Positions 13,498-52,648 are shown, counted from the stretch's first letter. The stretch is 64,000 nt of DNA from Acidimicrobiales bacterium (GCA_039934635.1 JBDTLT010000011.1:5118-69117), one strand, 5' to 3'. A program made the numbers and translations. The notes: a model not told the origin generated them from the sequence alone.

Positions 13498-13518
13498 CTT
13501 GGCGCAGCGGACGCGACG

Positions 13519-13974: not shown

Positions 13975-13989
13975 CACAATATTGGCACC

Positions 13990-14200: not shown

Positions 14201-14209
14201 GTGCACGTT

Positions 14210-14419
14210 ATGGGAAGGAAATACGTGGTGGATCGACCGATCCGGTACGAACACAACCGCTTCCTCGGCGACAAGCGCCGCCAGTTCGTCTACGACCTCG
14301 ACGACGTGACCGAACGAGCCGTGATCGACGAACTCGTCGCGTCCGAGCAAGTCGCCACGTTCGGCCCCGACACCCTCTCCGAAGCGCGCAACCGCGGCTA
14401 CCGCCTGCGCCGAGCCTGA
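14210..14419 (+). CDS. Small hypothetical protein (69 aa)
   Basis: MGRKYVVDRPIRYEHNRFLGDKRRQFVYDLD...EARNRGYRLRRA, with strong GC3 bias. Confidence 0.7.
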   Translation: MGRKYVVDRPIRYEHNRFLGDKRRQFVYDLDDVTERAVIDELVASEQVATFGPDTLSEARNRGYRLRRA

Positions 14420-17235: not shown

Positions 17236-18149
17236 CGGTAGGTCTCCTCGATGCCTAGCCCTAGTCCAATCTTCGGCCCCCAGCCCAACTCCTTGAGCTT
17301 TGTGACGTCGAGAAGCTTGCGCGGCGTGCCGTCGGGCTTGGACAGGTCGTGTTCGATCGTTACCGACGGATAGACGATATCGCGCACCATGTGGGCCAGT
17401 TCGAGGATGGTGACGTCCTCACCCGTACCCACGTTGATGTGCTTGTCGCCGGTGTAATGATCCATGAGGAACATGCAGGCATCAGCAAGATCATCGACAT
17501 GTAGGAATTCGCGGCGAGGGCTGCCGGTGCCCCAGATGACGACGGAATCGGCACCGCTCACCCGGGCATCGTGGAATTTGCGGATCATCGCGGGCAACAC
17601 GTGGCTCGACTCGAGGTCGAAGTTGTCGTGGGGTCCGTAGAGGTTGGTGGGCATGGCCGAGATGAAGTCGCAGCCGTATTGGTGGGCGTAGGCCTGACAG
17701 AGCTTGATGCCCGCGATCTTCGCGATCGCGTAGGGCTCGTTGGTCGGCTCGAGTTGGCCGCTGAGCAACTCGTCTTCACTGATCGGCTGATGCGCGAGCC
17801 GCGGATAGATGCACGAGCTGCCGAGGTACAACAGCTTGCGCACGCCGGTCAGATACGAGGCGTGCACGACCGTGGCATGGATCATCATGTTGTCGTAGAG
17901 GAACTCGGCCGGATACGTCGCGTTGGCGAGGATGCCACCGACCTTGCCGGCGACGAGGAAGACGTACTCGGGCCGGTTCTGCTCGAACCAGACGTTGACC
18001 GCGGCCTGATCGCGGAGATCGAGCTCTCTGCGCCGCACGAGGAGCAGGTTGTCGTAGCCGGCGGAGCGGAGACGGCGCACGACGGCCGAGCCGACGAGGC
18101 CAGCGTGCCCGGCCACGAAGATCCGGGCGTCTTTCGGCATGGCGTTCAT
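17178..18149 (-). CDS. fcl: GDP-L-fucose synthase
   Basis: [66 protein letters not shown]. Confidence 0.96.
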
Positions 18150-18272
18150 AGCCATCTCAGAGTAGCCACGCGGCGCGGAATTTCGACACGGGCCGAACGG
18201 CTCTGCCGGGACCACCCAGGTGGGGTCGTGTCCCATTCGCCGCCCATGGGCCAAACGTGGTCTACTTTCGCC

Positions 18273-19262
18273 GTGAGCGAGACAATCGATACCGTCAACA
18301 CGCTCGAGTACCCCTACACCCGCACGACCGGCCCGTATATGGGACCGTTCCTCACCGCACTCCGTGACGGCAAGTTGATCGCCAACAAGATCGATGGCCG
18401 CACGTTTTGCCCGCCGCTGGAATACGACCCCGCTACCGGGGCCACGGCGCCGGCAGAGTTCGTAGAGGTCGGCCCGGGCGGTACGGTCGTCGGTTGGACG
18501 TGGATCGCCGAGCCGTCAGAAAAGCATCCCTTCGCGCATCCCTTCGCGTTTGCGTTGATCAAGATCGACGGGACCGACGTGCCGATGGTGCACGCGATCG
18601 ACGCCGGCTCGATCGACGAGATGGCAACGCTGATGCGGGTCTCGGCGCAGTACCGCGACGAGCGCCATGGCGCCATCACCGACGTGTACTTCGTGCCGTT
18701 GGCCAAGGCGCAGGCCCAGACGATCGCGCCCGGTGAGGGCACCGTCGAGATCACCGAGCATCTGATCTCACTCAAGGTCCGCGAGCAGCTGTACCCGCAC
18801 CGCCGACGCTTTGCCAACGGGTTGCTGGCCGGCAAGATCATCGGCCAGAAGAGCCCGGTGTCGGGCAAGGTCTACGTACCGGGTCGTGGCTACGACAATC
18901 TCGAGCGCGTGCCGCTGACCGAAGCCGACGAGGTCGAAGTTCCCTCCCGTGGCACGGTCGTTGCGTTCACGGTCATCACCCCGGTGCAGTACTACGGACA
19001 GAAAGAGACCGAGCCGTACATCCGTTGCTCGGTCCTGCTCGACAACAGCGATCAACCGATCATGGGGGTCGATGTGCGCGACATCCCGCTCGACGAATTC
19101 CGAGTGGGCATGCGACTCGGCGCCGAATGGAAGAAGCCAGAAGAGCGGTCCGTCGCCGGGCTCGACAACCGCGGCGGCGTATGGGATCAGGTGATCGATC
19201 GATGGACGCCCACCGGCGAGCCCGACGTCGATTTCGAGACGTTCAAAGAACATACGTGGTGA
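18273..19262 (+). CDS. Tandem DUF35/OB-fold protein (Rv3521-like partner of thiolase-like aldolases)
   Basis: Two repeats of (Y/E).Y...GP..F..L..G....V.VP...V...GTV..(W/F)T; directly upstream of two thiolase-like genes. Start 18246 or 18273. Confidence 0.85.
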
Positions 19263-19269
19263 CTGGCTG

Positions 19270-20340
19270 ATGACTGCATCCAACAACACCGACATCGCGA
19301 TCGTTGCGGTCTCACAGACCCCATCGCATCGTCGTTTCAACGACAGCGAACCGCGCCTGATCATGGACTGCGTCAACGACCTGTTGACGCAGACCGGCCT
19401 TGATCGCCACGACATCGGCTTCACCATCGCGGGTAGCTGCGACTACCTCTCGGGCATGCCGTTCGCCTTCGTGCAGAACATCGACGGGGTAGGCGCCTGG
19501 CCTCCGGTCTACGAAAGCCACGTCGAGATGGACGGCGCGTGGGCACTATTCGAGGCGTGGATTCGCCTGCAGTTGGGCGACATCGACATCGCGCTCGTCA
19601 GTGGTTCGGGCAAGTCATCGCCGGGCACCCCCCGCCACGTCTTCCCGTTGCAGTCCGACCCCTACGTGATGGCGCCGCTGGGCCTCGACTACGTGTCGCT
19701 GGCCGGCATCCAGGCGCGTGCACTCATCGAGGCGGGCAAGGCGACCGAACGTGATTTCGCCGAGGTCGTGTCGCGCAGCCGAGCCGCAGCGATGAACAAC
19801 CCCTACGCGCAGGTCAAGAACAACGTCTCGGTCGACGACTTGTTGGAGCGGCCGTACTTCGCCGCTCCGTTGCGCTTGCACGACCTGCCGCCCATCTCCG
19901 ATGGTGCTGCGGCCATGATCATCGCCCGCGGCGATCGGGCCCGTGAGCTCAGCGACAATCCGGTCTATATCCGCAACATGGATCACCGCATGGAGTCGCA
20001 CTATCCCGGTCTGCGTGATCTCACCACATCGGTTTCAACGAAGATGGCCGCGGCCAACACCGGCGTCAGCGATGGTCCGATCGACGTGGCCGAGTTGACG
20101 GTCAACTACAGCCACGAAGAGATCATCTTGCGTGAAGCGCTCGGTCTGCTCGATCACGCCAACGTCAATCCATCGGGCGGGCCGCTGGCCGGTCATCCCG
20201 TGATGGCAACCGGGCTCATCCGTGTCATCGAGGTTGCGCAACGAATCAAGAGCGGTGCGGCCAATCGAGGCGTCGCGCATGCTTCGAGTGGCGCCTGTCT
20301 TCAGCAAAATCTGGTCTGCGTGTTGGAAGGGAGCAACTGA
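19270..20340 (+). CDS. Thiolase-domain lipid-transfer protein (Ltp4-like)
   Basis: GSCDYLSG.PF.FV..ID..GAWPP.YESHVEMDGAWAL.EAW, DGAAA, VNPSGG.L...P.MATGL.R, HASSGACLQQN. Confidence 0.88.
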   Translation: MTASNNTDIAIVAVSQTPSHRRFNDSEPRLIMDCVNDLLTQTGLDRHDIGFTIAGSCDYLSGMPFAFVQNIDGVGAWPPVYESHVEMDGAWALFEAWIRLQLGDIDIALVSGSGKSSPGTPRHVFPLQSDPYVMAPLGLDYVSLAGIQARALIEAGKATERDFAEVVSRSRAAAMNNPYAQVKNNVSVDDLLERPYFAAPLRLHDLPPISDGAAAMIIARGDRARELSDNPVYIRNMDHRMESHYPGLRDLTTSVSTKMAAANTGVSDGPIDVAELTVNYSHEEIILREALGLLDHANVNPSGGPLAGHPVMATGLIRVIEVAQRIKSGAANRGVAHASSGACLQQNLVCVLEGSN

Positions 20341-21497
20341 TGGCTGTTCCTTGTGCAGTGATCGGCATCGGCCAAACGAAGTACAAGAGTCGCCGGCCCG
20401 ACGTTTCGCTCGAGGGTCTGGTTCGCGAAGCAGTTTTGCGGGCGCTCGACGACGCAGAGCTGACGTTCAAGGACATCGACGCCATCGTGGTCGGCAAGGC
20501 GCCCGACGCGCTCGAAGGTGTGATGATGCCCGAGCTGTCGCTGGCCGACGCGATCGGCGCGGTCGGCAAGCCCGTCCATCGCGTGCACACCGCAGGTTCG
20601 GTGGGCGCATCGACCGCGGTGTCGGGCGTGACCCTCGTCGAATCCGGTCGCTACGAGCGCGTCTTGGTGGTCTGCTACGAGAAGCAATCCGAAGGCAATG
20701 CCACCTGGGCGCTGTCGGGTGGGCGATCGGGCGGTCAAGGCGCGGGCGGCACGTTCGCACCGTGGATTCGCAACTACATCCAGCGCTCCAAAGCACCTGA
20801 GCACATCGGTTGGATGGTGGCCGTCAAAGACCGCAAGAACGCGCTCAAGAACCCCTATGCGCACTTGCAGCTGAAGGACATCTCGATCGAAAAGGTCAAA
20901 GAGTCCCCGATGCTGTGGGACCCGCTGCACTACCTCGAATCGTGCCCTTCTTCCGACGGCGCCGCGGCAGTCGTGCTCGGCAGCGAAGCCGCCGCCAAGA
21001 AAGCACCGCGGGCACCGGCGTGGGTCATCGCGCACGCCAAGCGCACCGAGTTCGGCCAATTCCCCGGCCGCGACACGGTCAAGCCTCAGGCGGGCGTCGA
21101 CTGCGCGCTCGAGCTCTACAAGAAGGCCGGCATCACCAACCCGCTCAAACAGGTCGACTGCGCCGAGCTCTACGTGCCGTTCTCGTGGTACGAGCCCATG
21201 TGGCTCGAAGGCCACCTCATCGTCGAGGAAGGCGAAGGTTGGAAGGTGACCGACCGCGGCGACACCGAGATCGGCGGGGCATTCCCCGTCAACATGTCCG
21301 GTGGTGTGTTGTCGTCCAACCCGATCGGCGCGTCAGGTCTCATCCGTTGTCTCGAGGCGGCCAATCAGGTGCGGGGCACCGCGGGCGACTACCAGGTCGA
21401 CGGAGCCAAGGTGGCCATCGGCCACGCCTACGGGGGTGCAGCGCAGTACTTCGCGATGTGGATCGTCAGCTCCGACCTGCAGCCGACCTTCAAGTAA
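20340..21497 (+). CDS. Thiolase-domain protein (Ltp3-like)
   Basis: GKAPDALEGVMMPEL, TAGSVG, ESCPSSDGA, AELYVPFSWYE, VNMSGGVLSSNPIGASG, GHAYGGAAQYF. Confidence 0.9.
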   Translation: MAVPCAVIGIGQTKYKSRRPDVSLEGLVREAVLRALDDAELTFKDIDAIVVGKAPDALEGVMMPELSLADAIGAVGKPVHRVHTAGSVGASTAVSGVTLVESGRYERVLVVCYEKQSEGNATWALSGGRSGGQGAGGTFAPWIRNYIQRSKAPEHIGWMVAVKDRKNALKNPYAHLQLKDISIEKVKESPMLWDPLHYLESCPSSDGAAAVVLGSEAAAKKAPRAPAWVIAHAKRTEFGQFPGRDTVKPQAGVDCALELYKKAGITNPLKQVDCAELYVPFSWYEPMWLEGHLIVEEGEGWKVTDRGDTEIGGAFPVNMSGGVLSSNPIGASGLIRCLEAANQVRGTAGDYQVDGAKVAIGHAYGGAAQYFAMWIVSSDLQPTFK

Positions 21498-21530
21498 CCG
21501 GCGTCAATAACCGGCATTCAAGTAACCGAC
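21489..21530 (+). repeat. Three 14-nt-period direct repeats spanning the ltp3-like stop codon
   Basis: TTCAAGTAACCGGC / GTCAA-TAACCGGC(A) / TTCAAGTAACCGAC. Confidence 0.7.
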
Positions 21531-21549
21531 GGCAGCAAGGTGCACACAC

Positions 21550-22449
21550 ATGGGTAGTTGTGACGGTCGCGTGGTCATCATCACCGGCGCCGGCCGCGGG
21601 CTCGGGCGCGCACACGCACTCGCGTTCGCGTCAGAGGGCGCGCGCGTCGTCGTGAACGATCTCGGCGTCGAACGCGACGGCACCGCAGCCGGCTCCGCCC
21701 CCGCGCAAGAAGTCGTGGCGGAGATCAAGGCCCAGGGCGGACAAGCCATCGCCAACGGCGCCGACGTCGCCGACTGGGATCAAGTCGGTGCGATGGTGCG
21801 CCAGGCGATCGACACGTTCGGGCGTCTCGACACCGTCGTCTGTAACGCGGGGTTCCTGCGTGATCGCATGCTCGCCAACATGTCGGTCGACGAATGGGAC
21901 GCGATCATGCGCGTGCACCTGCGCGGTCATTTCATACCGGCTCGCCACGCCATCGCCCATTGGCGCGATCTCGCCAAGGCGGGCGAAAGGGTCGAGGGTC
22001 GCATCGTCAACACCAGCTCCGGTGCGGGGCTCATGGGTTCGATCGGGCAGGGCAACTACGTGGCCGCCAAGGCCGGCATTGCTGCGCTGACCGTGCAGGA
22101 AGCCGCGGAGTGGGGCCGCTACGGGGTGCTCGCCAACGCCATCGCACCCGATGCGCGTACGCGTATGACCGAAGGCGTATTCGCGGACATGGCCGAACCT
22201 ACGGCCGACGAATTCGACATCAAAGATCCGGCCAACGCCTCACCACTCGTCGTTTGGCTCGGCTCGCCGCAATGCGACGTGACCGGCCGCGTCTTCGAGA
22301 TCGTCGGGGGCCGCGTCAACGTATGCGACGGATGGCAACACGGTCACGTCGTCGACATCGGTCGGCGCTACGAGGTGTCAGAGGTCGGCCCTGCGGTGCA
22401 CGAGTCGATCGCCAAGACGCTGTCGCCCGCGCCCGTCTACGGCACGTAA
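21550..22449 (+). CDS. SDR oxidoreductase (Rv3548c / 3-hydroxyacyl-CoA dehydrogenase-like)
   Basis: ITGAGRGLG, VVNDLG, NAGFLRDRM, NTSSGAGL.GS.GQGNYVAAK (YxxxK). Confidence 0.92.
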   Translation: MGSCDGRVVIITGAGRGLGRAHALAFASEGARVVVNDLGVERDGTAAGSAPAQEVVAEIKAQGGQAIANGADVADWDQVGAMVRQAIDTFGRLDTVVCNAGFLRDRMLANMSVDEWDAIMRVHLRGHFIPARHAIAHWRDLAKAGERVEGRIVNTSSGAGLMGSIGQGNYVAAKAGIAALTVQEAAEWGRYGVLANAIAPDARTRMTEGVFADMAEPTADEFDIKDPANASPLVVWLGSPQCDVTGRVFEIVGGRVNVCDGWQHGHVVDIGRRYEVSEVGPAVHESIAKTLSPAPVYGT

Positions 22450-22477
22450 GCGCATCGCGGCGCGAGAGGGACACGCG

Positions 22478-23704
22478 ATGGATTTCGACGACTCACCACA
22501 AGAGCAGGCGTACCGGGCCGAGGTGCGATCGTTTCTCGACGCGCACGCGGCACCGAAGACGGGTTCGAGCCTCGCCGACTCGTATTACGCAAAGGCGCCC
22601 GCCGCCGGTGAAGAGTCCGAGCACGTGCGGCAATGCAAGCATTGGCAACACCTGCTCTTCGACAACGGCTGGGCCGGCATTGCATGGCCGAAGGCCTATG
22701 GAGGCAGGGGCGAGACGGCCCGCCATCAAGGGATCTTCAACCAAGAGCAAGCGCGCTACGACGTGCATGCCGGCATCTTCTCGGTCGGCATCGGCATGAC
22801 GGGCCCGACGCTCATCGCCCACGGCACCGAAGAGCAAAAGCAGCGCTACCTGCGTCCGATGTTGGCCGGCGACGAAGTGTGGTGCCAGCTCTTCTCCGAG
22901 CCCGGTGCCGGATCCGATCTCGGTGGGTTGCGCACGACGGCCGTGCGTGACGGCGACGAATGGGTCGTCAACGGACAAAAGGTCTGGAACTCCGGGGCGC
23001 AATACAGCGACTGGGGCATCCTGCTGACGCGCTCCGACCCCGACGTGCCAAAGCACCGCGGCATCACCTACTTCGTGGTCGACATGCGCAGCGCGGGGGT
23101 CGACGTGCGGCCCTTGCGCCAGATCACGGGCGCCGCGCACTTCAACGAGGTCTTTCTCACCGACGTGCGTATCCCGCACGAGAACATCGTCGGTGAGATC
23201 AACGCAGGGTGGGGTCCGATGATGACCACCCTCGCCAACGAGAGGACGCTCATCGGGTCGTCGCAGTCGATGGTCACCTTCGACGACATCGTGGCGTTCG
23301 CCCGTCATCAAGGCGTCGCGGGTGATCCGGCGATCCGCCAAGAGCTCATTCGGCAACTGTCGTTCGCGGAGACCATCAAGTACTTGGGCTACCGCACGCA
23401 GACGGCCGCGTCACGGGGCAAGCTCCCCGGCCCCGAAAGCTCGGTCATCAAGCTGGCGGCGTCGCGACGGCTCGAGCATCAGGGCAACCTCGTGATGAGC
23501 ATTGCCGGCGCTTCGGGCATGTTGTGGGAAGAAAGCGCCTATCTCGGTGGCTTCTGGCAGAACCAGTTCCTGGGCCAGTGGATGTCGCGCATCGGCGGTG
23601 GCACCGATCAGATCCAGCGCAACACGATCGGCGAAAAGGTGCTCCAGCTCCCGCCCGAGCCGAGAGTCGACAAGGGCATCCCGTTCAAGGACGTCCCCAA
23701 ATAG
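22478..23704 (+). CDS. Acyl-CoA dehydrogenase (alpha type; tandem paralog A)
   Basis: WCQLFSEPGAGSDL, NGQKVW, HFNEVF, TTLANER, IGGGTDQIQRNTIGEKVL. Confidence 0.93.
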   Translation: MDFDDSPQEQAYRAEVRSFLDAHAAPKTGSSLADSYYAKAPAAGEESEHVRQCKHWQHLLFDNGWAGIAWPKAYGGRGETARHQGIFNQEQARYDVHAGIFSVGIGMTGPTLIAHGTEEQKQRYLRPMLAGDEVWCQLFSEPGAGSDLGGLRTTAVRDGDEWVVNGQKVWNSGAQYSDWGILLTRSDPDVPKHRGITYFVVDMRSAGVDVRPLRQITGAAHFNEVFLTDVRIPHENIVGEINAGWGPMMTTLANERTLIGSSQSMVTFDDIVAFARHQGVAGDPAIRQELIRQLSFAETIKYLGYRTQTAASRGKLPGPESSVIKLAASRRLEHQGNLVMSIAGASGMLWEESAYLGGFWQNQFLGQWMSRIGGGTDQIQRNTIGEKVLQLPPEPRVDKGIPFKDVPK

Positions 23705-23762: not shown

Positions 23763-24986
23763 ATGGACTTCGATGAGACTCCGGACGAAGCAGCGTTTCG
23801 GGCCGAGGTGAAGGCATTTCTGGACGAGCACGTGCCGGCGTCGCGGTCGAATGAACGGGACCAGAACTCGATCTTCATCACCGATCACGACAAGGAGCTC
23901 GCGCACGTGCAGCGTTGCCGCGATTGGCAGCGCGTCAAGTTCGATCACGGCTGGGCGGGCATCACGTGGCCCAAGGCGTATGGCGGTCGCGGCGGCACGT
24001 CCATCCAAGACGGCATCTTCAAGCAGGAAGAAGCCAAGGTCATCGCGGCGTCAGGCGTGTTCGCCGTCGGCATCGGCATGGCGGGCCCGATGTTGATCGC
24101 CCACGGCACCGACGAACAGAAAGAGCGCTACCTGCGTCCGATGTTGCAGGGCGAAGAGGTGTGGTGCCAGCTGTTCTCCGAGCCCGGTGCCGGATCTGAT
24201 CTCGGCGGGTTGCGCACGACGGCCGTGCGCGACGGCGACGAGTGGATCGTCAACGGACAAAAGGTCTGGACATCGGGCGCGCACTACAGCGACTGGGCGA
24301 TCTTGCTGACCCGCACCGACCCGTCGGCGCCCAAGCACCGCGGCATCACCTACTTCCTCGTCGACATGCGCGCGCCGGGCATCGACGTGCGGCCGCTGCG
24401 CCAGATCACCGGCGCCGCGCACTTCAACGAAGTGTTCCTCTCGGACGTGCGTATCCCGCACGAGAACATCGTCGGCGAGATCAACGCAGGGTGGGGTCCG
24501 ATGATGACCACGCTGTCGAACGAGCGCACGCTCATCGGTGGCGGGCAGGGTCGCACGGGCATCGAAGATCTGATCGGGCTCGCGCGCGACACGGGCACCG
24601 ATGACGACGCCGTCATTCGTCAAGAATTGGCCAAGGCATACACGCGCATGCAGATCCAGACCTACCTCGGCTACCGCGTACGCACCGCTGCTTTGCGGGG
24701 CGAACAACCCGGCCCCGAGAGCTCGGTGATGAAGCTCGCCGTGTCACTGCACCTGCACGAGATCGGCAATTTGGTCATGGCCATGCAACACGCTGCGGGG
24801 ATGTTGTCCGGTGCGAGCGCGATCGACGACGGGCGCTGGCAGATGGAGTTCCTCGGCCAGTTCGGGGCGCGTATCGGCGGCGGCACCGACCAGATTCAAC
24901 GCAACACGATCGGCGAAAAAGTTCTGCGCCTGCCTCCCGAGCCGCGCGTCGATAAGGGCATACCATTTCGCGACATACCAGGTTGA
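23763..24986 (+). CDS. Acyl-CoA dehydrogenase (alpha type; tandem paralog B)
   Basis: Same motifs as 22478, with long near-identical DNA blocks; ATG at 23763. Confidence 0.93.
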   Translation: MDFDETPDEAAFRAEVKAFLDEHVPASRSNERDQNSIFITDHDKELAHVQRCRDWQRVKFDHGWAGITWPKAYGGRGGTSIQDGIFKQEEAKVIAASGVFAVGIGMAGPMLIAHGTDEQKERYLRPMLQGEEVWCQLFSEPGAGSDLGGLRTTAVRDGDEWIVNGQKVWTSGAHYSDWAILLTRTDPSAPKHRGITYFLVDMRAPGIDVRPLRQITGAAHFNEVFLSDVRIPHENIVGEINAGWGPMMTTLSNERTLIGGGQGRTGIEDLIGLARDTGTDDDAVIRQELAKAYTRMQIQTYLGYRVRTAALRGEQPGPESSVMKLAVSLHLHEIGNLVMAMQHAAGMLSGASAIDDGRWQMEFLGQFGARIGGGTDQIQRNTIGEKVLRLPPEPRVDKGIPFRDIPG

Positions 24987-25015
24987 GTCATTCACCGGGA
25001 CTAGGGGGACAGCGC

Positions 25016-25807
25016 ATGCGTGATGTGAAGATTCTCGTCGCCGAGTTGGTCGGAACGATGATCCTGATACTCGCAGGACCGGGCAGTGCCATCCTCGCGG
25101 CCGACAGGATTCACACTGCCGGGGTCGCTGTCGCATTTGGTCTGGCGCTGCTCATTGCGGCGTACACGATCGGTCCGATCTCCGGTTGCCACATCAACCC
25201 GGCGGTGACGCTGGCGATGTGGATCGCACGCAAGATTCCGACGCGCACCCTGCCGGCGTACATCATCGGACAGATCCTCGGTGCGTTCGCCGGCGCAGCG
25301 GTGATCTTCTCGATCGCGAACGGCATCGACGGGTTCAGTGCAAAGAACAATTTCGCGGCCAACGCGTGGGGATCGAAGAATGGCTTCTATCCGGTCGGTT
25401 CGATGATCATCGTCGAGATCGTCTTCACCGCACTGCTGGTTTTCGTCGTGTTGTCGACGACGACGCAGAAGTTCACGGCGTCGCAGGGCGGCCTCGTCAT
25501 CGGCCTCACGCTGACCTTGATCCACTTGATCACGATCCCCGTCGACAACACGTCGGTGAATCCTGTGCGCAGTCTTGCGACGGCTGTGTTCCAACGAGGC
25601 GATGCCCTCGAGCAGGTCTGGGCATTCGTCTTGTTCCCGCTCGTCGGTGCCGTCGTCGGCGTGTTGGTGTGGCTCGCGGTCGACGATGCCCGCCTCGAGG
25701 ACACGTTGCTCAAGAGCGATGTACTCGTCAGCGCGCGCGACCAGATGACCAAGGTTGCCGACTCGGTCGAGGGTGCACTCGACAAAGCCGGCGACGAACT
25801 CAGCTGA
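25016..25807 (+). CDS. aqpZ: Aquaporin (MIP family)
   Basis: ISGCHINPAVT (NPA1), LIHLI.IPVDNTSVNPVRS (second motif NPV), six hydrophobic helices. Confidence 0.92.
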   Translation: MRDVKILVAELVGTMILILAGPGSAILAADRIHTAGVAVAFGLALLIAAYTIGPISGCHINPAVTLAMWIARKIPTRTLPAYIIGQILGAFAGAAVIFSIANGIDGFSAKNNFAANAWGSKNGFYPVGSMIIVEIVFTALLVFVVLSTTTQKFTASQGGLVIGLTLTLIHLITIPVDNTSVNPVRSLATAVFQRGDALEQVWAFVLFPLVGAVVGVLVWLAVDDARLEDTLLKSDVLVSARDQMTKVADSVEGALDKAGDELS

Positions 25808-26554: not shown

Positions 26555-27486
<932 letters not shown>

Positions 27487-33702: not shown

Positions 33703-34683
33703 TCAGTAGTTGAGGGCGAGTCCGGCACGCGGCCATTCGACTTCGAGCACTTGACCCGAGCCGGACAGTGTCACGAAAGCAGTGCGACGATCGGGTCCAC
33801 CGAAGCACACGTTGGTGGTCATGGGATCAGGCATGGCCACGTAGTGGAGGTCGGATGCGTCGGGCGCGATCACGCACAAACCATCGGAGATGGCCGCGAC
33901 GACGATGTTGCCCCCGGCTTCGACCGCCAGCGAATCGAAGTGCCCGAGCGTGTTGGCCAGACAGCGCCCTCCGTGGCCTCGCTCGGCCGGAGCGATGACG
34001 CCAGGACCAGCGAGGTCGAACGCCCACAACCGTCCGGTCATGGACTCCGCGACGTACAACGTGGAGTCGTCGGGCGACAGGCCTACCCCGTTGGGCATCC
34101 ACATCGGCCATATCTTGCGTTCGACCATCGACCCGTCGGGCTGCGCGTAGTACACAGCGCCCTTGTCGATCATTCGTTCATGGCTCTTGCCCAGATCGGT
34201 GAACCAGAAGCCGCCCTGCGCGTCGAACACGATGTCGTTCGGCCCGGTGAATCGATGACCATCGCAGTCGCGGTACAGGACCTGTGCCTCGCCGGTGGCG
34301 AGGTCGACGCGATTGATCCAACCCCCCTCGTAGGTGGGCGGCAGATTGGCACCAGTGACGAAGTTGGTCGGGATCTCGATGCCATTGCGCTCAGACCAGT
34401 AGAAGCCCCCGTTGTTGGTGATGTACACCGCACCGTCGGGGCCGATCGCGGCACCGTTGGCACCGCCGAACCCGGCGGGATTGACCTCTGCGACGACGGT
34501 GACGCTGCCGTCGGGAGCGCACCGGCTGAGGGTGCCTCCGCGCACCTCGACCGCGAGCACCGAGCCGTCGTCCATCGCCACCGGCCCTTCGGGAAAGCGC
34601 AGGCCACGGGCAAAGACTCTGTTTTGGGGCGTCGGTAAGCGGCGAATCGAAGTGTCGGTCATCACGGCCCCCGTCGACGTCAT
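33703..34683 (-). CDS. SMP-30/gluconolactonase/LRE family protein
   Basis: FPEGPV, GPNDIVFD..GGFWFTD, PNGVGLSPD, TTNVCFGG. Confidence 0.9.
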   Translation of the reverse strand: MTSTGAVMTDTSIRRLPTPQNRVFARGLRFPEGPVAMDDGSVLAVEVRGGTLSRCAPDGSVTVVAEVNPAGFGGANGAAIGPDGAVYITNNGGFYWSERNGIEIPTNFVTGANLPPTYEGGWINRVDLATGEAQVLYRDCDGHRFTGPNDIVFDAQGGFWFTDLGKSHERMIDKGAVYYAQPDGSMVERKIWPMWMPNGVGLSPDDSTLYVAESMTGRLWAFDLAGPGVIAPAERGHGGRCLANTLGHFDSLAVEAGGNIVVAAISDGLCVIAPDASDLHYVAMPDPMTTNVCFGGPDRRTAFVTLSGSGQVLEVEWPRAGLALNY

Positions 34684-34737: not shown

Positions 34738-35553
34738 ATGGCTGTCGAAGAAGATCTGCTGTACCGCATCGAAAATGGTGTTGCCTGGCTGACGATGAAT
34801 CGTCCGCAGGTCGGCAACGCGATGACGCCCGAGGTCCGCGATCGCATGCGCGACATCATCAACGACCTCAACGTCAGCTACGAAGCGCGCGCGATCGTCA
34901 TCACCGCGACGGGCGAAAAGATGTTCTGCCCTGGCGCCGACATCTCCACTGATCGCGCGGTGGTCCGGCCCCAAGGCGCGCCCGAACGCATCGTCGGACA
35001 GAACCGGCGCATGATGCTCAACGGCCAACTGCAACTGATGCCGGCGATCATCAATTCCGAGTTGCCCATCATCGCTGCGGTCAATGGCACGGCCGCCGGC
35101 GTGGGCGCGCACCTGGCGCTCGTGTGCGATCTCGTGATCATGGCCGACAACGCCAAGTTCATCGAGGTGTTCGCCCGCCGCGGTCTGATTCCCGATGGTC
35201 TCGGCACATGGATCCTGCCGCGGTTGATCGGTCTGCAGAAGGCCAAAGAGCTCTGCTTCTTTGCGGACGACGTGCCCGCGCAACGAGCCCTCGAGATCGG
35301 CCTGTGCAACAAGGTCGTGCCCAAGGCGGAATTGCAGTCGACGGCGCGCGAGTGGGCCGAACGGCTCGCCGGTGGCCCTACACGGGCGTACATGCTGATG
35401 AAGTGGTTGCTCAATCGCAGCCTCGACGTCGACATGCGCACCATCATGGAAGAAGAAGCATGGGCGGTCGAGGCCGTGACCCAGACCCAGGACATGACCG
35501 AAGGCGTGGCCAGCTTCCGGGAGAAGCGCCCGCCGCAGTGGACCGGCTTCTGA
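34738..35553 (+). CDS. Enoyl-CoA hydratase/isomerase family protein
   Basis: FCPGADI, IIAAVNGTAAGVG..LALVCD, F..RGLIPDG, EGVASFREKRPP. Confidence 0.92.
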   Translation: MAVEEDLLYRIENGVAWLTMNRPQVGNAMTPEVRDRMRDIINDLNVSYEARAIVITATGEKMFCPGADISTDRAVVRPQGAPERIVGQNRRMMLNGQLQLMPAIINSELPIIAAVNGTAAGVGAHLALVCDLVIMADNAKFIEVFARRGLIPDGLGTWILPRLIGLQKAKELCFFADDVPAQRALEIGLCNKVVPKAELQSTAREWAERLAGGPTRAYMLMKWLLNRSLDVDMRTIMEEEAWAVEAVTQTQDMTEGVASFREKRPPQWTGF

Positions 35554-35599: not shown

Positions 35600-36496
35600 A
35601 TGGTGTTCGCACTGCTTCTGCGACAGGCGTCCGGCGCGGAGCCCACCGAGACTGCGTTCGATCGGATGCCGACCTGGGGCAAGTACGGCATCCTCGCGCT
35701 CCTGTTGTTGTTCGCCGTCGCGATGATCGAGACGGTCCGCCGCCATGGCTTGCGGGACCGCGAGGTGAAGCTGGCCGCGCTCAGCGCCGGCTTTCAGTAC
35801 AACCAGACTGATCCAGCCGGTGTCGGCGAACTGCGCTTTGCTGCATTCGGTCGCGGCAAGGGTACGCGCATCAGCAACGTGGTGAGCGGCAAGTCGCATA
35901 CCGGTGCCGTCGTGCGCGCGTTCGACTTCTCGAGCTACATGGAACACGCCGTGTCCGAGAGTCAGCGCGAGTCGGAGTTCGTCGACTACCTGTGGGGCAT
36001 GGACGGCTGGGGCGAGAGCAGCGGATATTCCAGCAACAAAATGAGGACTTACTCGAAGGCACGATCCGGGGCGGTCGTCAAGCTCGACGCCTTCCTGCCG
36101 TCGATGGTGGTTGCTCCGTCGAATCTGATCACGCGTGCGTTCGAGATGGTGGGTGCGGAGGACATCGACTTCGAATCCGAAGAGTTCAACCGTGGCTACG
36201 ACGTGCGCTGCTCGGACAAGCGGTTTGCGTCGTTGTTCCTCGACGCGCAGATGATCGACTTCATCCTCGGCTTCGACCGTCACTTCGCCTTCGAGACGTT
36301 CGGTAACTACGTGCTGTGTCACGCCAAGATGTGTGAACCTCGTCAACTGCCGGCGCTCGCGGCGAAGATGGGCGAACTGCTGCCGTTGGTCAACCAACTG
36401 GTCTACGACGAGTATCCGACCGTGGCCGGCGTCGAGTACCGCGACGCGATCAGCGATTGGAACCATCGCCCGGGCGGAGCTCGCGGCTACTACTGA
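35600..36496 (+). CDS. Hypothetical membrane-anchored protein (DUF3137-like)
   Basis: One TM near the N-terminus; D.DFESEEFN..Y.V...D..FA....D motif. Confidence 0.7.
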   Translation: MVFALLLRQASGAEPTETAFDRMPTWGKYGILALLLLFAVAMIETVRRHGLRDREVKLAALSAGFQYNQTDPAGVGELRFAAFGRGKGTRISNVVSGKSHTGAVVRAFDFSSYMEHAVSESQRESEFVDYLWGMDGWGESSGYSSNKMRTYSKARSGAVVKLDAFLPSMVVAPSNLITRAFEMVGAEDIDFESEEFNRGYDVRCSDKRFASLFLDAQMIDFILGFDRHFAFETFGNYVLCHAKMCEPRQLPALAAKMGELLPLVNQLVYDEYPTVAGVEYRDAISDWNHRPGGARGYY

Positions 36497-36810
36497 GGCA
36501 CGGGCCGGTGCAGCACTGCCTTGGTCGGCGTCATCCGCAACTGCGAACCTTCGACGGCGGCGTCGGCATCGACGATGAGGCTGAAGCCGTCGGCTTCGTG
36601 AGGGGGCCAGAGCACGGCGATCTGTGCGCGTGTGGCCGCGTTCTCGGCGCTGCGCCGGCCGACCGTGCACGTCAGCACGCCGCCGTCGTGCGTGACAACC
36701 ACGTGGCTGATGTGGGGGCGCCCGTCGTCGCTGGTGGTGAGTACGAAGGCACTGGCGCCGAAGCGCGCCATCTCGTCGCCCAGGTGATCGAGCGCGACGG
36801 CGATGCTCAT
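36490..36810 (-). CDS. Pyridoxamine 5'-phosphate oxidase-like (split barrel) protein
   Basis: FVLTTSDDGRPHISHV, SAENA......LWPP....FSLIVD. Confidence 0.75.
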   Translation of the reverse strand: MSIAVALDHLGDEMARFGASAFVLTTSDDGRPHISHVVVTHDGGVLTCTVGRRSAENAATRAQIAVLWPPHEADGFSLIVDADAAVEGSQLRMTPTKAVLHRPVPQ

Positions 36811-37439
36811 CGGGGCGCCGCGGCCTTGCGAGCAATGCCGATGTAGTGGGCGACGAATGGCTTGGGACCCTTGCCGTACTCGCGGTCGAGTCGTTCGATC
36901 TCGAAACCCGCGTCCGTCAGTTCGCGGTCATGCGCCCGAGTGAGTTGGCAGCCGCCGAAGACGCGACTGCTGATGGGTTGGATGCGATGCTGCCACTTGT
37001 TCACGTTGTCGTCGGGCGACAGGCCGTGTTCCACGAAATGCAGCGCGCCACCCGGTTTGAGCACGCGGTGCACTTCGCGCAGCGCGCGCCCTTCGTCGGG
37101 GATCGTGCACAGCGTGAAACTCGAGACGGCGTTGTCGACCGATTCGTCGGCGAGTGGAATGTCCTCACCGTCGAGGCCGATGAACTCCACCGGGATTTCG
37201 GATCGACCGATGCGGTCGGCCGCCAGCTTGCGCCCGATGGTCGCCGGATCGACCGCGTAGACCTTGGTGACCGCGGGTGGATAGAGCGGCACATTGAGCC
37301 CCGAGCCGAAACCGATCTCGAGTACTACGCCGCTGATGCCCTCGAGCGACTGGCGCCGCAGCGCGCGGATGTCGTCGTTGTCCATCACCTTGTCGATCAG
37401 CCGAGGCAGGACCTGGTCGCCGTAGACACCCACGGGCAT
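36807..37439 (-). CDS. Class I SAM-dependent methyltransferase (PmtA-like)
   Basis: VLEIGFGSGLN, AVDP, FTLCTIPD...AL.E..RVLKPGG..HF.EHG. Confidence 0.9.
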   Translation of the reverse strand: MPVGVYGDQVLPRLIDKVMDNDDIRALRRQSLEGISGVVLEIGFGSGLNVPLYPPAVTKVYAVDPATIGRKLAADRIGRSEIPVEFIGLDGEDIPLADESVDNAVSSFTLCTIPDEGRALREVHRVLKPGGALHFVEHGLSPDDNVNKWQHRIQPISSRVFGGCQLTRAHDRELTDAGFEIERLDREYGKGPKPFVAHYIGIARKAAAPR

Positions 37440-37505: not shown

Positions 37506-39365
37506 ATGTACGTGCGGGTGGATCTGGGCTCGGGCGCCGTCGCACTGGCCGAGCCCGACAACTTCAAGCAGTTCCACGTGACGGCGAGCGGGCCTGGCCT
37601 CGACGACGATGTCGCGGACGCGCTCGGTGACGGTGGGCGCCGGTGTGACGAGCCGAGCCACGTCTACGTCGCGATCGAACTCGTGCGACGGCTCGCGGCC
37701 CCCCAAATGGGTGACGAGTGGGAGGCGGGATTCGACAAGATGCTGGGTTTCGCCCAGAAGATGGGTTGGATCGACCCGAGCGGCGAGTTCATCAAGGCGC
37801 ACACCGAGTGGCCGCTGTGCGACGGCCGCAACCTCTGGGAGTTGATCGAGGCGCGGGTCGCGGCCACGCCCGATATCGAGATGGCGTGCGACGAATCGGG
37901 CAATCGCCTGACGTTTCGGCAATTCGAGGACCGGGCCGAACGCATGGCGGCGGGCCTCATGACGATGGGCATCGCCGCGAACGACGTCGTCTCGTGGGAG
38001 CTGCCCAGTTGGATCGAGTCGATGGTGTTGAGCGCGGCCATCAATCGGCTCGACGCGGTGCAGAACCCGATCATCGCGATCTACCGGGAACGCGAGGTCG
38101 CGTTCTGCACGAAGCAGGCCGGCGCCAAGCTGTTGATCGTGCCCGGCGTCTGGCGCGGCTACGACTACACGGCGATGGCCAACGCTGTCGCGGCGGCCAA
38201 CGACGGTCTCGAAGTCCTCACGGTCGAGCGGGGCGCGTTTCCCGATGGTGATCCGACGACATTGCCGCCGCCCCCACGGCCGTTGGCGTCGGGCGAACTG
38301 CCGATGCGCTGGTTGATGTACACGTCCGGTACGACCAGCGATCCCAAGGGCGCGCGGCACACCGATGCCGCCAATGCGATCGTGGCTCGCACGACCGGTC
38401 AGCGCTTCGATGTCCGTCACGGTGACCGGCCCTCGCTCGTGTTTCCGTTCCCGCACATCGGCGGCATCATGTGGATGGTGCTGTCGTTGCAGTTCGGGGC
38501 AACTCTGCTGTTCGAAGAAGCCTTCGACGCCAATCGCACGCCGCGGTATCTCTCGCGCGAGGGGTGCACGCATCCGGGGTCGGGCACGCCGTTCCATGTG
38601 GCGTATCTCAACGTGCAGCGCGAGCAGCCCGACGTGCCGTTGTTCCCGCGGGCGAAGTGTTTTCCGGGAGGCGGTGCACCCAAGCCGCCGCAACTGACCT
38701 ACGAGGTCAAGGACGAGTTGGGCGCAGTGGTCGTGTCGGGCTGGGGTCTCACCGAGGTCCCGATCCTCACGATGGCGTCGACCAAGGATTCGCTCGAACG
38801 GCTCGCGCAGACCGAAGGTTTCGTCATGCCGGGTGTCGAATTGATCGTCGTCAAGCTCGACGGCACACGGGCTGCCCCTGGCGAAGAGGGCGAACTGCGC
38901 GCGAAGGCACCACAGATGATGTTGGGCTATCTCGACGAGCGCCTCGACGCGGAGGCGTTCGACGAAGAGGGCTACTTCCGCACCGGCGACCTGGGCACGC
39001 TCGATGCCGACGGCTACGTGGTCATCACGGGCCGGTCCAAGGACGTCATCATCCGCAACGCGGAGAACATCTCGGCCAAAGAGGTCGAAGATGTGCTCTA
39101 CACGCACCCCAAGGTGCACGACGTCGCCGTCATCGGATTGTCCGATGCGAAGACGGGCGAACGCGTGTGCGCGGTGGTGTCGAGCACCGACGTCCAGGAT
39201 CCGTTGACCTTTGCCGCCATGCGCGATTTCCTGATCCAGCACGGCTTGCGCAAGCAGGCGATTCCCGAGCAGTTGGAGCTGGTCGACGTCATTCCCCGCA
39301 ATGCGGCGGGCAAGATAACCAAGAACGTGCTGCGCGACCGATTCAATGGTGCAGATCGACAATGA
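37506..39365 (+). CDS. AMP-binding acyl-CoA ligase (cyclohexanecarboxylate-CoA ligase-like) fused to an N-terminal ~100-aa uncharacterised domain
   Basis: ATG 37506; N-domain ending WEAGFDKMLGFAQKMGW...IKAHTEW runs in frame into LWELIEARV..TPD; YTSGTTSDPKG, GWGLTE, YFRTGDLG, RNAAGKI.K. Confidence 0.85.
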   Translation: MYVRVDLGSGAVALAEPDNFKQFHVTASGPGLDDDVADALGDGGRRCDEPSHVYVAIELVRRLAAPQMGDEWEAGFDKMLGFAQKMGWIDPSGEFIKAHTEWPLCDGRNLWELIEARVAATPDIEMACDESGNRLTFRQFEDRAERMAAGLMTMGIAANDVVSWELPSWIESMVLSAAINRLDAVQNPIIAIYREREVAFCTKQAGAKLLIVPGVWRGYDYTAMANAVAAANDGLEVLTVERGAFPDGDPTTLPPPPRPLASGELPMRWLMYTSGTTSDPKGARHTDAANAIVARTTGQRFDVRHGDRPSLVFPFPHIGGIMWMVLSLQFGATLLFEEAFDANRTPRYLSREGCTHPGSGTPFHVAYLNVQREQPDVPLFPRAKCFPGGGAPKPPQLTYEVKDELGAVVVSGWGLTEVPILTMASTKDSLERLAQTEGFVMPGVELIVVKLDGTRAAPGEEGELRAKAPQMMLGYLDERLDAEAFDEEGYFRTGDLGTLDADGYVVITGRSKDVIIRNAENISAKEVEDVLYTHPKVHDVAVIGLSDAKTGERVCAVVSSTDVQDPLTFAAMRDFLIQHGLRKQAIPEQLELVDVIPRNAAGKITKNVLRDRFNGADRQ

Positions 39366-39378
39366 GGAGAAGGCGACA

Positions 39379-39741
39379 ATGGCGAAAGTGACCATCTACC
39401 ACAACGGCAATTGAAACTCGTCCAATAGCGCCTTGGCGGTCGCCAAGGATCTGGGTGTCGATGCCGAGATCGTGCAATACCTCAAGACTCCACCCGACAA
39501 AGCGACGCTCGAAAAGATCATCGGCATGCTCGAAGATCCCGTGGAGGACCTCGTCCGCAAGGATGCCAAATTCGAAAAGCTGGGCCTCGACCCCGCCACG
39601 TTCGTGGGCAAGCCGAAGGCGGTCGTCGACATCTTGTTGAAGCACAAAGAACTGATGCAACGACCGGTCATCGTCAAAGGCAACAAGGCGATCATCGGCC
39701 GACCGAAGGACAAGGCCGCAAAGTTCCTCGAGGCCAAATAG
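39379..39741 (+). CDS. arsC: ArsC-family arsenate reductase with in-frame TGA at catalytic Cys12 (probable selenoprotein, UxxS)
   Basis: SD gaggag, then ATG 39379: MAKVTIYHNGN-TGA(39412-39414)-NSSNSAL...LVRKD...LMQRPVIV...IIGRP. His8, Ser15, Arg60, Arg95 and Arg108 line up with R773 ArsC H8/C12/S15/R60/R94/R107. Confidence 0.9.
39412..39448 (+). other. UGA-Sec codon plus bacterial SECIS-like hairpin
   Basis: CCTTGGC-GGTC-GCCAAGG (39431-39448); apical loop starts 23 nt after the UGA; the GGUC loop resembles the E. coli fdhF SECIS apical loop. Confidence 0.8.
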
Positions 39742-39755
39742 AAGGGCTCGCACCT

Positions 39756-41096
39756 ATGGCGATCACCGAGTACACCGACGATGCACCGGTCGGCACGACC
39801 ATCACCACGGTCGCGCGCCGGCGCACCCCGGTGCGCATTCCTGCCGCGCGCTACACCGACCCTGCGTGGGCCGAGCTCGAAGAGCAGCGAGTGTGGACCA
39901 AGACATGGCAACTGGCGTGCACACTCGACCACTTGGCCAATGCCGGCGACTGGTTCGAATACACCGTCGCCAAGTACTCGGTGCTCATCGTGCGCGATGA
40001 CGACGGCGCGTTGCGGGCCTATCAAAACGTGTGCCTGCATCGTGGCAACGAGCTGTGTCACGGCGCGGGCAGTGGGCTCACCGAGATTCGCTGCCCCTAC
40101 CACCGGTGGTCGTGGGATCTGCAAGGTCGGTTGCGGGAGGTGCCCTCGCGCAAAGGGTTCGGTGCTTTGCGCAACGAAGAGTTCCCCCTCATCTCGGTGC
40201 TCGTCGACACGTGGGGACCATTCGTCTTCGTCAACCTCGACACCGACGCCATGCCGTTGGGCGAATACCTCGCACCGGTGCCCGACGACATCGCGTGGGC
40301 AGGCATCGACGAGTTTCGTTGCCGCGCCCTCGTCACGGTGCCCTTGCCGGCCAACTGGAAGGTCTGCATCGAGGCGTTCAGCGAGACCTATCACGTGCAG
40401 GGCATCCATCGCGAGATGCTGCCGATGTGCGACGACGTCAATTCTCCGCAGGCAATCTGGGAGCATTCCGGCCGCTTGGTGCAACCCTACGGGGTGCCGT
40501 CACCTCGCCTGCGGCAGAGGCCGGACGATCAGCAGGTCTGGGATGCGTTCATCGAAGTGATGGGCGGCCGGATCGGCATCTCCGACAAGGCGGCGGCCGG
40601 CACCGTGCCCGAGGTTCCCGCCGGGCAGACGCTGCGCGATGTCCTCGCTCAAGGCGTGCGCGACGTAGGAGCGGCACAAGGGCTCGACTTCACATTGTTC
40701 AGCACGACGGAGCTGATGGATCTCAACCAGTACAACTTCTTCCCCAACATCACCGTGCTCGTGTTCCCCGATCTGTTGAGCGTCATCCGCGCCCGGCCGG
40801 GCGCGAACCCCGATGAATGCTTCATGGATTCGTTCGCGTTCGTACGCGTGCCAAAGGGCTCGACCGCACCACGCGTCCAACCGGCGGCGCTCACCATGAG
40901 CCCCGATCAGCCCGTCTTCGGCCTCGTGATCAACCAAGACGTCGGCAACTTGCAACACGCGCAGCGGGGTCTGCACCAACCGGGCTTCACCCACCTCGCG
41001 ATCTCGGGCGAGGAGTGCCGCATCATCAATCTGCACCGCAACCTCGAGAAGTACATCGGCGTACGCGAGATGTACGGCGGTGACGAAGGGGACTAG
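39756..41096 (+). CDS. Rieske non-heme iron oxygenase alpha subunit (aromatic ring-hydroxylating family)
   Basis: NVCLHRG...CPYHRWSWDLQG Rieske motif; ANWK...EAF.ETYHV..IH mononuclear Fe motif; late D..N...Q.G. Confidence 0.92.
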   Translation: MAITEYTDDAPVGTTITTVARRRTPVRIPAARYTDPAWAELEEQRVWTKTWQLACTLDHLANAGDWFEYTVAKYSVLIVRDDDGALRAYQNVCLHRGNELCHGAGSGLTEIRCPYHRWSWDLQGRLREVPSRKGFGALRNEEFPLISVLVDTWGPFVFVNLDTDAMPLGEYLAPVPDDIAWAGIDEFRCRALVTVPLPANWKVCIEAFSETYHVQGIHREMLPMCDDVNSPQAIWEHSGRLVQPYGVPSPRLRQRPDDQQVWDAFIEVMGGRIGISDKAAAGTVPEVPAGQTLRDVLAQGVRDVGAAQGLDFTLFSTTELMDLNQYNFFPNITVLVFPDLLSVIRARPGANPDECFMDSFAFVRVPKGSTAPRVQPAALTMSPDQPVFGLVINQDVGNLQHAQRGLHQPGFTHLAISGEECRIINLHRNLEKYIGVREMYGGDEGD

Positions 41097-41185: not shown

Positions 41186-41222
41186 GTAGCAAGAGTGCAC
41201 GGTGGGAGTGCACTCTTGCTAC
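41186..41222. terminator. Perfect 15-bp hairpin between the convergent Rieske oxygenase and DUF445 genes
   Basis: gtagcaagagtgcac-ggtggga-gtgcactcttgctac. Confidence 0.7.
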
Positions 41223-51445: not shown

Positions 51446-52648
51446 ATGCCCGACTCGATCACGATCGTGGGCGCCTCGCTCGCGGGGCTCCGCGGTGCCG
51501 AGGCACTGCGCAACGATGGCTACGACGGGCGCATCACGGTGATCGGTGACGAGACCGGGGTTCCCTACGACCGGCCACCGCTGTCGAAGCAGCTGCTGGC
51601 GGGCAAATGGGAGATCGACCGCACGACGCTCTACCGCCCCGAACGATTGGCGGAGCTCGACCTCGACCTTCGGCTCGGTGTGCGGGCGACCGGTCTCGAT
51701 CTGCGCGATCGATCGATCGAGCTCGATGGCGGCCGGCGACAACCATTCGACGCGTTGCTCGTGGCCACTGGCTCCTCGCCGCGACAACTGCCCAACACGC
51801 CTTCGTTCGCCGGGCTCTACACGCTGCGCACGCTCGCGGACTCGTTGGCGATCCGGGGCGAGTTCGAGCGCGGCCCGAAGGTGGTGGTCGTCGGGGCCGG
51901 GTTCATCGGCGCCGAAGTCGCGGCGACGGCCCGCGAGCGCGGGCTCGATGTCACGATGATCGAAGCGCTACCCGTGCCCCTCGGGCGGGTGTTGGGCGAC
52001 GAGTTGGGCGCGTTGTGCGGGGACATCCATCGCGATCACGGGGTCGACCTACGTCTCGGCGTCGGTGTCGACGGCTTCGACGGCCACGAGCGGGTCGAGC
52101 GCGTGCGCCTGTCTGATGGCAGTGTCGTCGAGGCCGATGTCGTCATCGTCGGTGTCGGTGTTGCTCCGAACACCGCGTGGCTCGAAGGTTCGGGCCTCAC
52201 GATCGACAACGGCGTCGTGTGCGACGCGTCGTGTCTCGCGGCGCCCGGGGTCACCGCCGCGGGTGACGTTGCTCGTTGGCCGAATCACCGTTTCGACGAA
52301 GTGGCGAGGGTCGAACACTGGGACCACGCGATCGAGATGGGCGCGCACGCGGCACGTCGTCTTCTCCAAAGCGACGACGAAGCCACTGCGTTCAGCCCGG
52401 TTCCGTTCTTTTGGAGCGACCAGTACGACCGCAAGATCCAACTCGCGGGCCGCCCGCGCCCCGACGACACGGTGCACATCGCCACGGGGTCGCTCCAAGA
52501 GCGACGCTTCGCCGCGCTCTATGGGCGCGGCGGCAAGTTGGTGGCGGTGCTCGGTATCAACCGGCCGCGCCACGTAGCGCAGTACCGCCAACTCATCGTC
52601 GACGGCGCCAGCTTCGACGACGCGTTGGCGTTCTCGCGCGAGAGCTAG
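51446..52648 (+). CDS. FAD-dependent ferredoxin reductase
   Basis: IVGASLAG, YDRPPLSK, VVGAGFIG.E.A, AAGDVA, EHW, FFWSDQY. Confidence 0.93.
   Translation: MPDSITIVGASLAGLRGAEALRNDGYDGRITVIGDETGVPYDRPPLSKQLLAGKWEIDRTTLYRPERLAELDLDLRLGVRATGLDLRDRSIELDGGRRQPFDALLVATGSSPRQLPNTPSFAGLYTLRTLADSLAIRGEFERGPKVVVVGAGFIGAEVAATARERGLDVTMIEALPVPLGRVLGDELGALCGDIHRDHGVDLRLGVGVDGFDGHERVERVRLSDGSVVEADVVIVGVGVAPNTAWLEGSGLTIDNGVVCDASCLAAPGVTAAGDVARWPNHRFDEVARVEHWDHAIEMGAHAARRLLQSDDEATAFSPVPFFWSDQYDRKIQLAGRPRPDDTVHIATGSLQERRFAALYGRGGKLVAVLGINRPRHVAQYRQLIVDGASFDDALAFSRES

Follow-up and report, generated by a model that had tools for sequence, protein, structure and literature searches.

A selenocysteine-containing ArsC-fold protein encoded within an acyl-CoA ligase/Rieske oxygenase gene cluster of Acidimicrobiales

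Why should the gene of a selenocysteine (Sec)-containing protein with the fold of the arsenate reductase ArsC be found between those of an acyl-CoA ligase and a Rieske oxygenase? The question is raised by positions 37506-41096 of a 64,000-nt stretch of DNA from an Acidimicrobiales bacterium (GCA_039934635.1, JBDTLT010000011.1:5118-69117; the whole stretch is referred to as the window below), in which an earlier note, made from the sequence alone, had seen a catabolic operon that might mechanistically couple the selenoprotein to the ligase or the oxygenase. The explanation that we favor, at a probability of roughly 0.55, is that the Sec-ArsC is an autonomous reductase of arsenate or a similar oxyanion, whose gene is located in, and would be transcribed together with, an ancient cluster of acyl-CoA catabolic genes, the decay of which has taken different courses in different lineages.

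The gene trio and its ArsC-fold member

The open reading frame (ORF) calls gave the same layout as that described by the earlier note, i.e., three co-directional genes, all on the + strand, with gaps of 13-14 nt: the acyl-CoA ligase (37506-39365, 619 aa, consisting of an extra N-terminal domain, Ndom, and the ligase body), the Sec-ArsC (39379-39741, 120 aa, with an in-frame TGA as codon 12) and the alpha subunit of a Rieske non-heme iron oxygenase (39756-41096, 446 aa, PF00355 and PF00848), the first gap being 13 nt long (39366-39378, including GGAGAAGG) and the second one 14 nt (39742-39755). Separate transcription start sites or terminators between the genes had been named by the note as something that would contradict its operon; promoter-like and terminator-like sites were looked for inside the trio, and none was seen. 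Past the trio, a perfect 15-bp inverted repeat, probably a bidirectional terminator, occupies positions 41186-41222, in the intergenic region separating the Rieske gene from the DUF445 gene convergent with it; the fold of this region has a z-score of -3.0. Given such short gaps (13 and 14 nt), the failure to find a terminator inside the trio, and the strong hairpin 3' of the Rieske gene, it is very likely, as far as the DNA can tell, that the ligase, ArsC and Rieske genes are on one transcript.

The protein encoded by the middle gene matches the ArsC models of both Pfam (PF03960) and NCBIfam (TIGR00014), the score against the latter being 93.8 bits, which is under the curated equivalog (trusted) cut-off of 106.05. 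Over residues 1-112, it aligns end to end with the ArsC of E. coli plasmid R773 (1I9D/1JZW), a glutaredoxin-coupled arsenate reductase, with U12 falling on Cys12 and R60, R95 and R108 falling on the arsenate-binding Arg60, Arg94 and Arg107, i.e., the two proteins share the catalytic position 12 and an intact arginine triad, whereas the protein studied here has Sec in place of Cys, no arsRDABC operon around it, and the below-cut-off TIGR00014 score just mentioned. Its active-site motif, YHNGN-U-NSS, is of the U-x-x-S kind, and a UxxS selenoprotein family designated “Arsenate reductase (ArsC) 1” is already listed in selenoprotein catalogues of marine metagenomes (PMC2398784, PMC9312934). The proteins of these Sargasso Sea and Global Ocean Sampling (GOS) selenoproteomes have the same pfam03960/COG1393 fold, Sec at the position of the catalytic Cys and a hairpin within the ORF downstream of the UGA, to which a conserved hairpin of the gene here may correspond; the gene at 39379-39741 is, by its sequence, a member of this known “UxxS arsenate reductase” family, so the gene itself is not new. 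What differs is that the published reports deal with metagenome reads without genomic context, whereas here the gene could be placed in a conserved acyl-CoA/oxygenase cluster of soil Acidimicrobiales, a catabolic context of Sec-ArsC for which, as far as we could find, there is no prior description.

The surroundings of the gene are not those of an ars operon, which agrees with the earlier note: neither acr3 nor arsR is beside ArsC, and the genes around it form an acyl-CoA/oxygenase cluster. The further statement of the note that the window is devoid of arsR, arsB/acr3 and arsenic efflux genes stood for acr3 and arsR, there being no match at E<=1 in a tblastn search of the window using the genome's own Acr3, ArsR and low-molecular-weight protein tyrosine phosphatase (LMW-PTP)-type ArsC; ArsB, which the statement also covered, was not searched. 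Two other candidates were considered and rejected, namely, the MIP channel at 24983-25807 as an arsenite channel (it is AqpZ-like and not an aquaglyceroporin) and the methyltransferase at 36807-37439 as ArsM (210 aa, 2 Cys, generic class-I similarity only). A complete ars island (arsC-acr3-arsI/cadI-arsR, plus a 73-aa ORF) is, nevertheless, present in the same genome outside the window, at 12563-15695 of contig C84 (families, genera, genomes, contigs and loci are given by our own labels throughout). It comprises an LMW-PTP-type arsC with a three-helix N-terminal domain (12563-13177), acr3 (13282-14271, above its cut-off), an ArsI/CadI-family gene on the opposite strand (likewise above its cut-off) and arsR, upstream of which there are AT-rich palindromes; the arsC was found using an approximate pI258 ArsC query and confirmed independently by Pfam and NCBIfam. 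This is the canonical actinobacterial type of ars island (LMW-PTP arsC-acr3-arsR, arsI/cadI), to which the Sec-ArsC gene is unlinked, and the reductase of which has a different fold and no Sec. No 9-mer or palindrome was found to be common to the upstream regions of the operon and the ars island. Elsewhere in the genome, a single ORF at C1:127072-127941 encodes an ArsR-type helix-turn-helix domain fused to an LMW-PTP (ArsC-like) domain.

Conservation of the neighborhood and independence of its members

Variants of an ECH-(g35600)-Ndom-ligase-ArsC-Rieske cluster, in which ECH stands for an enoyl-CoA hydratase/isomerase and g35600 for a membrane-anchored protein (both are described further below), were seen in five of the about 19 families examined (f1, f28, f38, f54 and f77), and such a context surrounds 22 of the 48 Sec-ArsC loci examined. 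The order and orientation of ligase-ArsC-Rieske, or of parts thereof, are the same in all five of these families (including two genera of f1), at ArsC identities of 54-70%. Within the genus, the layout is identical (G001 and G002), and in the sister genus, G004 has ECH, Ndom-ligase, ArsC and Rieske in an unbroken row, whereas G003 has a methyltransferase inserted in the cluster. Farther away, the cluster seems to have been lost piecemeal around ArsC, its members dropping out either singly, as in G082 of f77 (ECH, Ndom, ligase and ArsC, without Rieske) and G059 of f54 (ECH, a stand-alone Ndom, ArsC and Rieske, without the ligase body), or together, as in G321, G387 and G105 of f28, which have kept only ECH, g35600 and ArsC, with the ligase and Rieske missing from the cluster; G355, of the same family f28, has ECH, g35600, ligase, ArsC and Rieske. 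Four genera of f38 have ligase-ArsC, to which Rieske is added in genus g39 only (G043, G115, G212, G328, G393). The neighbors of the remaining 26 Sec-ArsC loci, which are distributed over genus g29 of f28 and 14 families outside these five, are heterogeneous and unrelated to the cluster (Bax1-I, CoaE/IMPase, MiaB/FtsK, amidase, GGDEF-EAL, P-II, TruA/L13/S9, ABC), and the synteny comparison that the earlier note had proposed as a check of its operon, therefore, gave a divided answer, with variants of the cluster kept in five families and nothing related to it at these 26 loci.

Some features of these neighborhoods may be recorded on their own. A luciferase-like monooxygenase gene is convergent right after ArsC or ArsC-Rieske in f28 and f38 (L145 8400-9407, L146 6929-7936, L147 2889-4157, L148 8541-9605, L047 5557-6633). 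A P-II gene is located directly upstream of Sec-ArsC in f40 (L056 of G045, 7361-8371), and the window itself has a gene for a P-II-like protein with an N-terminal extension at 26884-27486, 12 kb upstream of its Sec-ArsC.

Each of the three partners is also widespread without the others. Among the 401 genomes making up the order-wide sample, 181 have an ArsC homolog (E<=1e-20), which is single-copy in all but two of them, and the Rieske family is present in 47, most genomes with a Sec-ArsC being without it. ArsC followed by Rieske is adjacent by coordinates in 13 of these 47 genomes and split over contigs in one more; eight of the 47 are without any ArsC homolog (G052, G067, G085, G120, G171, G216, G348, G358), and both genes are present, yet unlinked, in G105, G242, G273, G062, G295 and G397, as well as in the f59 genomes G064, G368, G399 and G261. 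Similarly, in f39, the Sec-ArsC of G044 has unrelated neighbors, and ArsC is missing from the Rieske loci of both G116 and Poriferisocius, as it is from those of Microthrixaceae. Close relatives of the Ndom-bearing ligase occur without ArsC in f70 and in f23, in the latter beside genes of an SMP-30/gluconolactonase-like protein (SGL) and an acyl-CoA dehydrogenase. Since the partners occur separately and the active-site motifs of ArsC are identical regardless of the gene context, there would be no obligate coupling of ArsC, ligase and Rieske; the mechanistic coupling entertained by the earlier note, if taken to mean an obligate selenoenzyme–Rieske/ligase system, is not supported by these sequence comparisons.

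As each of the three genes is widespread without the others, an old shared neighborhood is more likely than a new selenium-dependent pathway. According to the explanation that we favor, the Sec-ArsC would be a protein of the glutaredoxin-type ArsC fold whose nucleophilic Cys12 has been replaced by Sec, and it would act alone in reducing arsenate, or a tetrahedral oxyanion like it, in a thiol-coupled manner. The adduct formed by attack of the selenolate on the oxyanion would be resolved by a low-molecular-weight thiol together with a redoxin, and As(III) would be exported through the Acr3 encoded on another contig. The linkage to the ligase and the oxygenase would then reflect an inherited gene order subject to lineage-specific decay, with no mechanistic dependence of the selenoprotein on either of them.

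Competing explanations

A possible, if rather tentative, alternative is that service to the pathway is what retains the Sec-ArsC in the ECH-ligase-ArsC-Rieske operon, as part of a facultative functional module. Its role might be to reduce a group containing pentavalent arsenic (or some other oxyanion) that is carried by the acyl substrate, either ahead of CoA activation and oxygenolytic cleavage or following them, or to repair an oxidized thiol on a pathway enzyme. Several observations speak for this, weigh against an autonomous reductase that merely resides in an inherited neighborhood, or do both. The co-directional linkage of ArsC is tight in five families despite their differing outer flanks, with the core of the cluster being retained even where these flanks are scrambled (G043, G355, G082). 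The lineages bearing the adjacency are scattered over the rpoB tree, not forming one clade, so that a minimum of three gains or losses is implied: the sister of G355 is G321, whose cluster is without the ligase and Rieske, and G043 lies within f38, beside genera without Rieske (in this tree, G003 stands for f1, the assembly containing the window being without rpoB, and four wrong-frame ORF rows were disregarded). The ligases adjoining ArsC belong to two subgroups, namely, a supported clade L1, consisting of those of f1, f77 and G355 together with non-adjacent f23 members, and an f38 group outside L1, with an L1-type ligase being additionally encoded elsewhere in f38 genomes. ArsC homologs are enriched in the genomes having the Rieske family (39 of 47, as compared with 181 of 401, or 45%, overall, a comparison uncorrected for phylogeny or genome size). 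None of the 48 Sec-ArsC and 4 Cys-ArsC loci examined in the order is in an ars operon, the contexts of the Cys-type homologs being varied as well, and, in a genome whose separate, full ars island includes a reductase of its own, resistance does not obviously call for a second one that is unlinked to it. Furthermore, to our knowledge, no Sec-ArsC has been studied biochemically, the family being known only from sequence catalogues, and we know of none for which arsenate reductase activity has ever been shown.

Against a role in the pathway stand the wide occurrence of each partner without the others and the single losses of cluster members around ArsC described above. No arsenic gene is found in the cluster (its methyltransferase is not ArsM-like, and the MIP channel is AqpZ-like), no operator is common to the operon and the ars island, no chemistry is known that would connect the single-selenol ArsC fold to a one-electron Rieske center, and a literature search for a Rieske–organoarsenical link found nothing relevant. 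The trees of ArsC, Rieske and the ligase are, moreover, unresolved or poorly resolved at the base, with those of ArsC and Rieske neither showing nor excluding a single origin of the adjacency. As a separate matter concerning the rpoB sequences, the presence of two distinct rpoB genes in G039 points to a mixed bin.

A more far-reaching proposal along the same lines, which we consider unlikely, is that an ancestral Acidimicrobiales module (ECH, Ndom-ligase, Sec-ArsC and Rieske) degrades carboxylic acids bearing an arsenic(V) or similar oxyanion group, with the ligase activating the acid, the selenoenzyme reducing its pentavalent group, and the Rieske oxygenase cleaving or hydroxylating what results. 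If this were true, organo-arsenicals (or organo-oxyanions) would be catabolized by a selenium-dependent pathway of an as yet undescribed kind.

It is very improbable that the ArsC-fold protein is a Spx-like regulator or a pseudogene, with the TGA being a true stop and the operon consisting, in effect, of only the genes of the ligase and the oxygenase. Spx models do match weakly (TIGR01617, 40.8 bits, the cut-off being 75), but the ArsC models score far above these, the arginine triad typical of ArsC is intact, and the motif is UxxS, not CxxC. The TGA in question (39412-39414, + strand, residue 12) is, together with the frame downstream of it, conserved in about 100 genomes: it is retained in 19 of 61 sampled relatives, at identities as low as 45%, a single TGA is present in about 104 of the 150 order-wide ArsC matches listed, and about 100 of the 401 genomes (about a quarter) have a Sec-ArsC, as a single copy, with Cys occupying the Sec column in more distant ArsC homologs. 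The two forms also alternate within families, as exemplified by f7, where G311 has Cys at 58% identity and the other genomes have TGA, which suggests repeated Sec/Cys switching. A hairpin resembling a selenocysteine insertion sequence (SECIS), CCUUGGC-GGUC-GCCAAGG (39431-39448, + strand), begins 16 nt past the UGA codon; 15 orthologs retain its stem (5-7 bp), in which compensatory changes affect two of the five consensus pairs, and its GGUC loop is conserved in most of them, although the single-sequence z-score is only -1.5 and the hairpin has no Rfam match, an Rfam scan of the window having returned none. The genome encodes selA, selB and selD, all above their cut-offs. In favor of a true stop, one might point out that a search of the fragmented, 496-contig assembly using aragorn and RF01852 did not recover a tRNA-Sec (the best matches being tRNA-Ser, tRNA-Leu and tRNA-Gly); the missing selC is, however, uninformative, because the assembly consists of that many contigs and is also without rpoB. 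Both of these are missing although the completeness of the assembly is estimated at 96.5%.

The least credible explanation is an accidental, genus-specific juxtaposition in which ArsC has recently landed between catabolic genes without any history or meaning. This genus has indeed been rearranged recently, an insert of g36490 and the methyltransferase now separating ECH/g35600 from the ligase, but the explanation is contradicted by f1 (two genera), f28, f38, f54 and f77, all of which have the genes, or parts of the set, in identical order and orientation.

Other proteins of the cluster and the wider window

The ligase body (37821-39365, + strand) is composed of AMP-binding (PF00501, E=1e-52) and AMP-binding_C (PF13193) domains, spanning residues 115-603 of the protein, and its best NCBIfam model is that of cyclohexanecarboxylate-CoA ligase, at 333 bits, which is under the cut-off of 792. 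The 105-aa Ndom preceding it (37506-37820, + strand) has no Pfam match, and a search for its homologs yielded close fragments only. The earlier note's designation of the CoA ligase as “fused” is borne out by Ndom being fused to the ligase in f1 and f70 and being a separate gene in G059, G082 and the f23 genomes G028, G202 and G385; the stand-alone Ndom genes of G059 and G082 are at 2912-3223 of L048 and 1394-1696 of L156, respectively.

The Rieske protein has both the Rieske and the Ring_hydroxyl_A domain, with CLH..CPYH and YHVQGIH in its translation, i.e., the C-x-H...C-x-x-H motif of the [2Fe-2S] cluster and the His-x4-His iron site of the catalytic domain are in place. Its closest solved structure is that of the carnitine monooxygenase CntA (6Y9C, E=1e-26, residues 28-218), and its best NCBIfam model is GbcA (120 bits, far under the cut-off). 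The CntA/GbcA-type Rieske monooxygenases, acting on carnitine and glycine betaine, respectively, are thus its best sequence matches and are likewise alpha-subunit-only, with Rieske and Ring_hydroxyl_A domains; however, it is the N-terminal half alone that matches, the scores are far under the family cut-offs, and there is no adjacent reductase gene here. Because relatives of this Rieske protein and its paralog in the same genome sit with ECH, thiolase-like and short-chain dehydrogenase (SDR) genes, analogy suggests that the substrates of the family are acyl or CoA-thioester compounds and not quaternary amines. The paralog (58% identity) is found at C1:76053-80494, where it is followed by thiolase-like (TLP1_add_C), SDR-like (assigned by eye) and ECH genes, with no ArsC. 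A ferredoxin-NAD+ reductase encoded at 51446-52648 of the window (+ strand; Pyr_redox_2 and Reductase_C; HcaD-like, 268 bits, under the cut-off) might be the electron donor for the Rieske oxygenase or for a P450.

The first gene of the cluster is that of ECH (34738-35553, + strand; PF00378, E=1e-58), orthologs of which, at 62-79% identity, are directly upstream of Ndom/ligase or g35600 by ArsC in G004, G003, G059, G355, G321, G387, G105 and G082. The protein g35600 (35600-36496, + strand), which directly follows ECH in several families, has one N-terminal membrane helix, hypothetical homologs only, no Pfam or PDB match, and a block invariant in its family (D-x-D-F-E-S-E-E-F-N...D-x-R-F-A). The insert seen in this genus (36490-37439) is on the opposite strand and consists of g36490, a 106-aa ORF (36490-36810, - strand), and the 210-aa S-adenosylmethionine (SAM) methyltransferase (36807-37439, - strand; Methyltransf_11, E=9e-20); it is missing from G004, where ECH abuts the ligase. 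Divergent from ECH is the gene of an SGL (33703-34683, - strand; PF08450), and this pairing of SGL with ECH, or one of SGL with Ndom-ligase, is kept in G003, G059, G028 and G242.

The window as a whole is rich in acyl-CoA catabolic genes, including those of a ChsH2-like OB-fold protein, thiolase-like proteins, SDRs, several acyl-CoA dehydrogenases, a second ligase, the SGL, a P450 and the ferredoxin reductase. A part of it, 17571-23704, encodes the ChsH2-like OB-fold protein, two thiolase-like proteins, an SDR and an acyl-CoA dehydrogenase, which resembles the sets known for steroid or branched side-chain beta-oxidation. The P450 ORF (46057-48030) is 657 aa long, with the P450 domain starting from about residue 236, which means either a long N-terminal extension or a start called too far upstream.

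In these bacteria, Sec-ArsC is, at the loci examined, never in an ars operon, coexists with a full conventional ars island, and, in several families, is embedded in an acyl-CoA/oxygenase operon, which poses a testable question: is this abundant selenoprotein truly an arsenate reductase? A “selenoenzyme-Rieske system” is not required by the data; were the minority view of a role in the catabolic pathway to be true, however, it would amount to new selenium-dependent catabolic chemistry.

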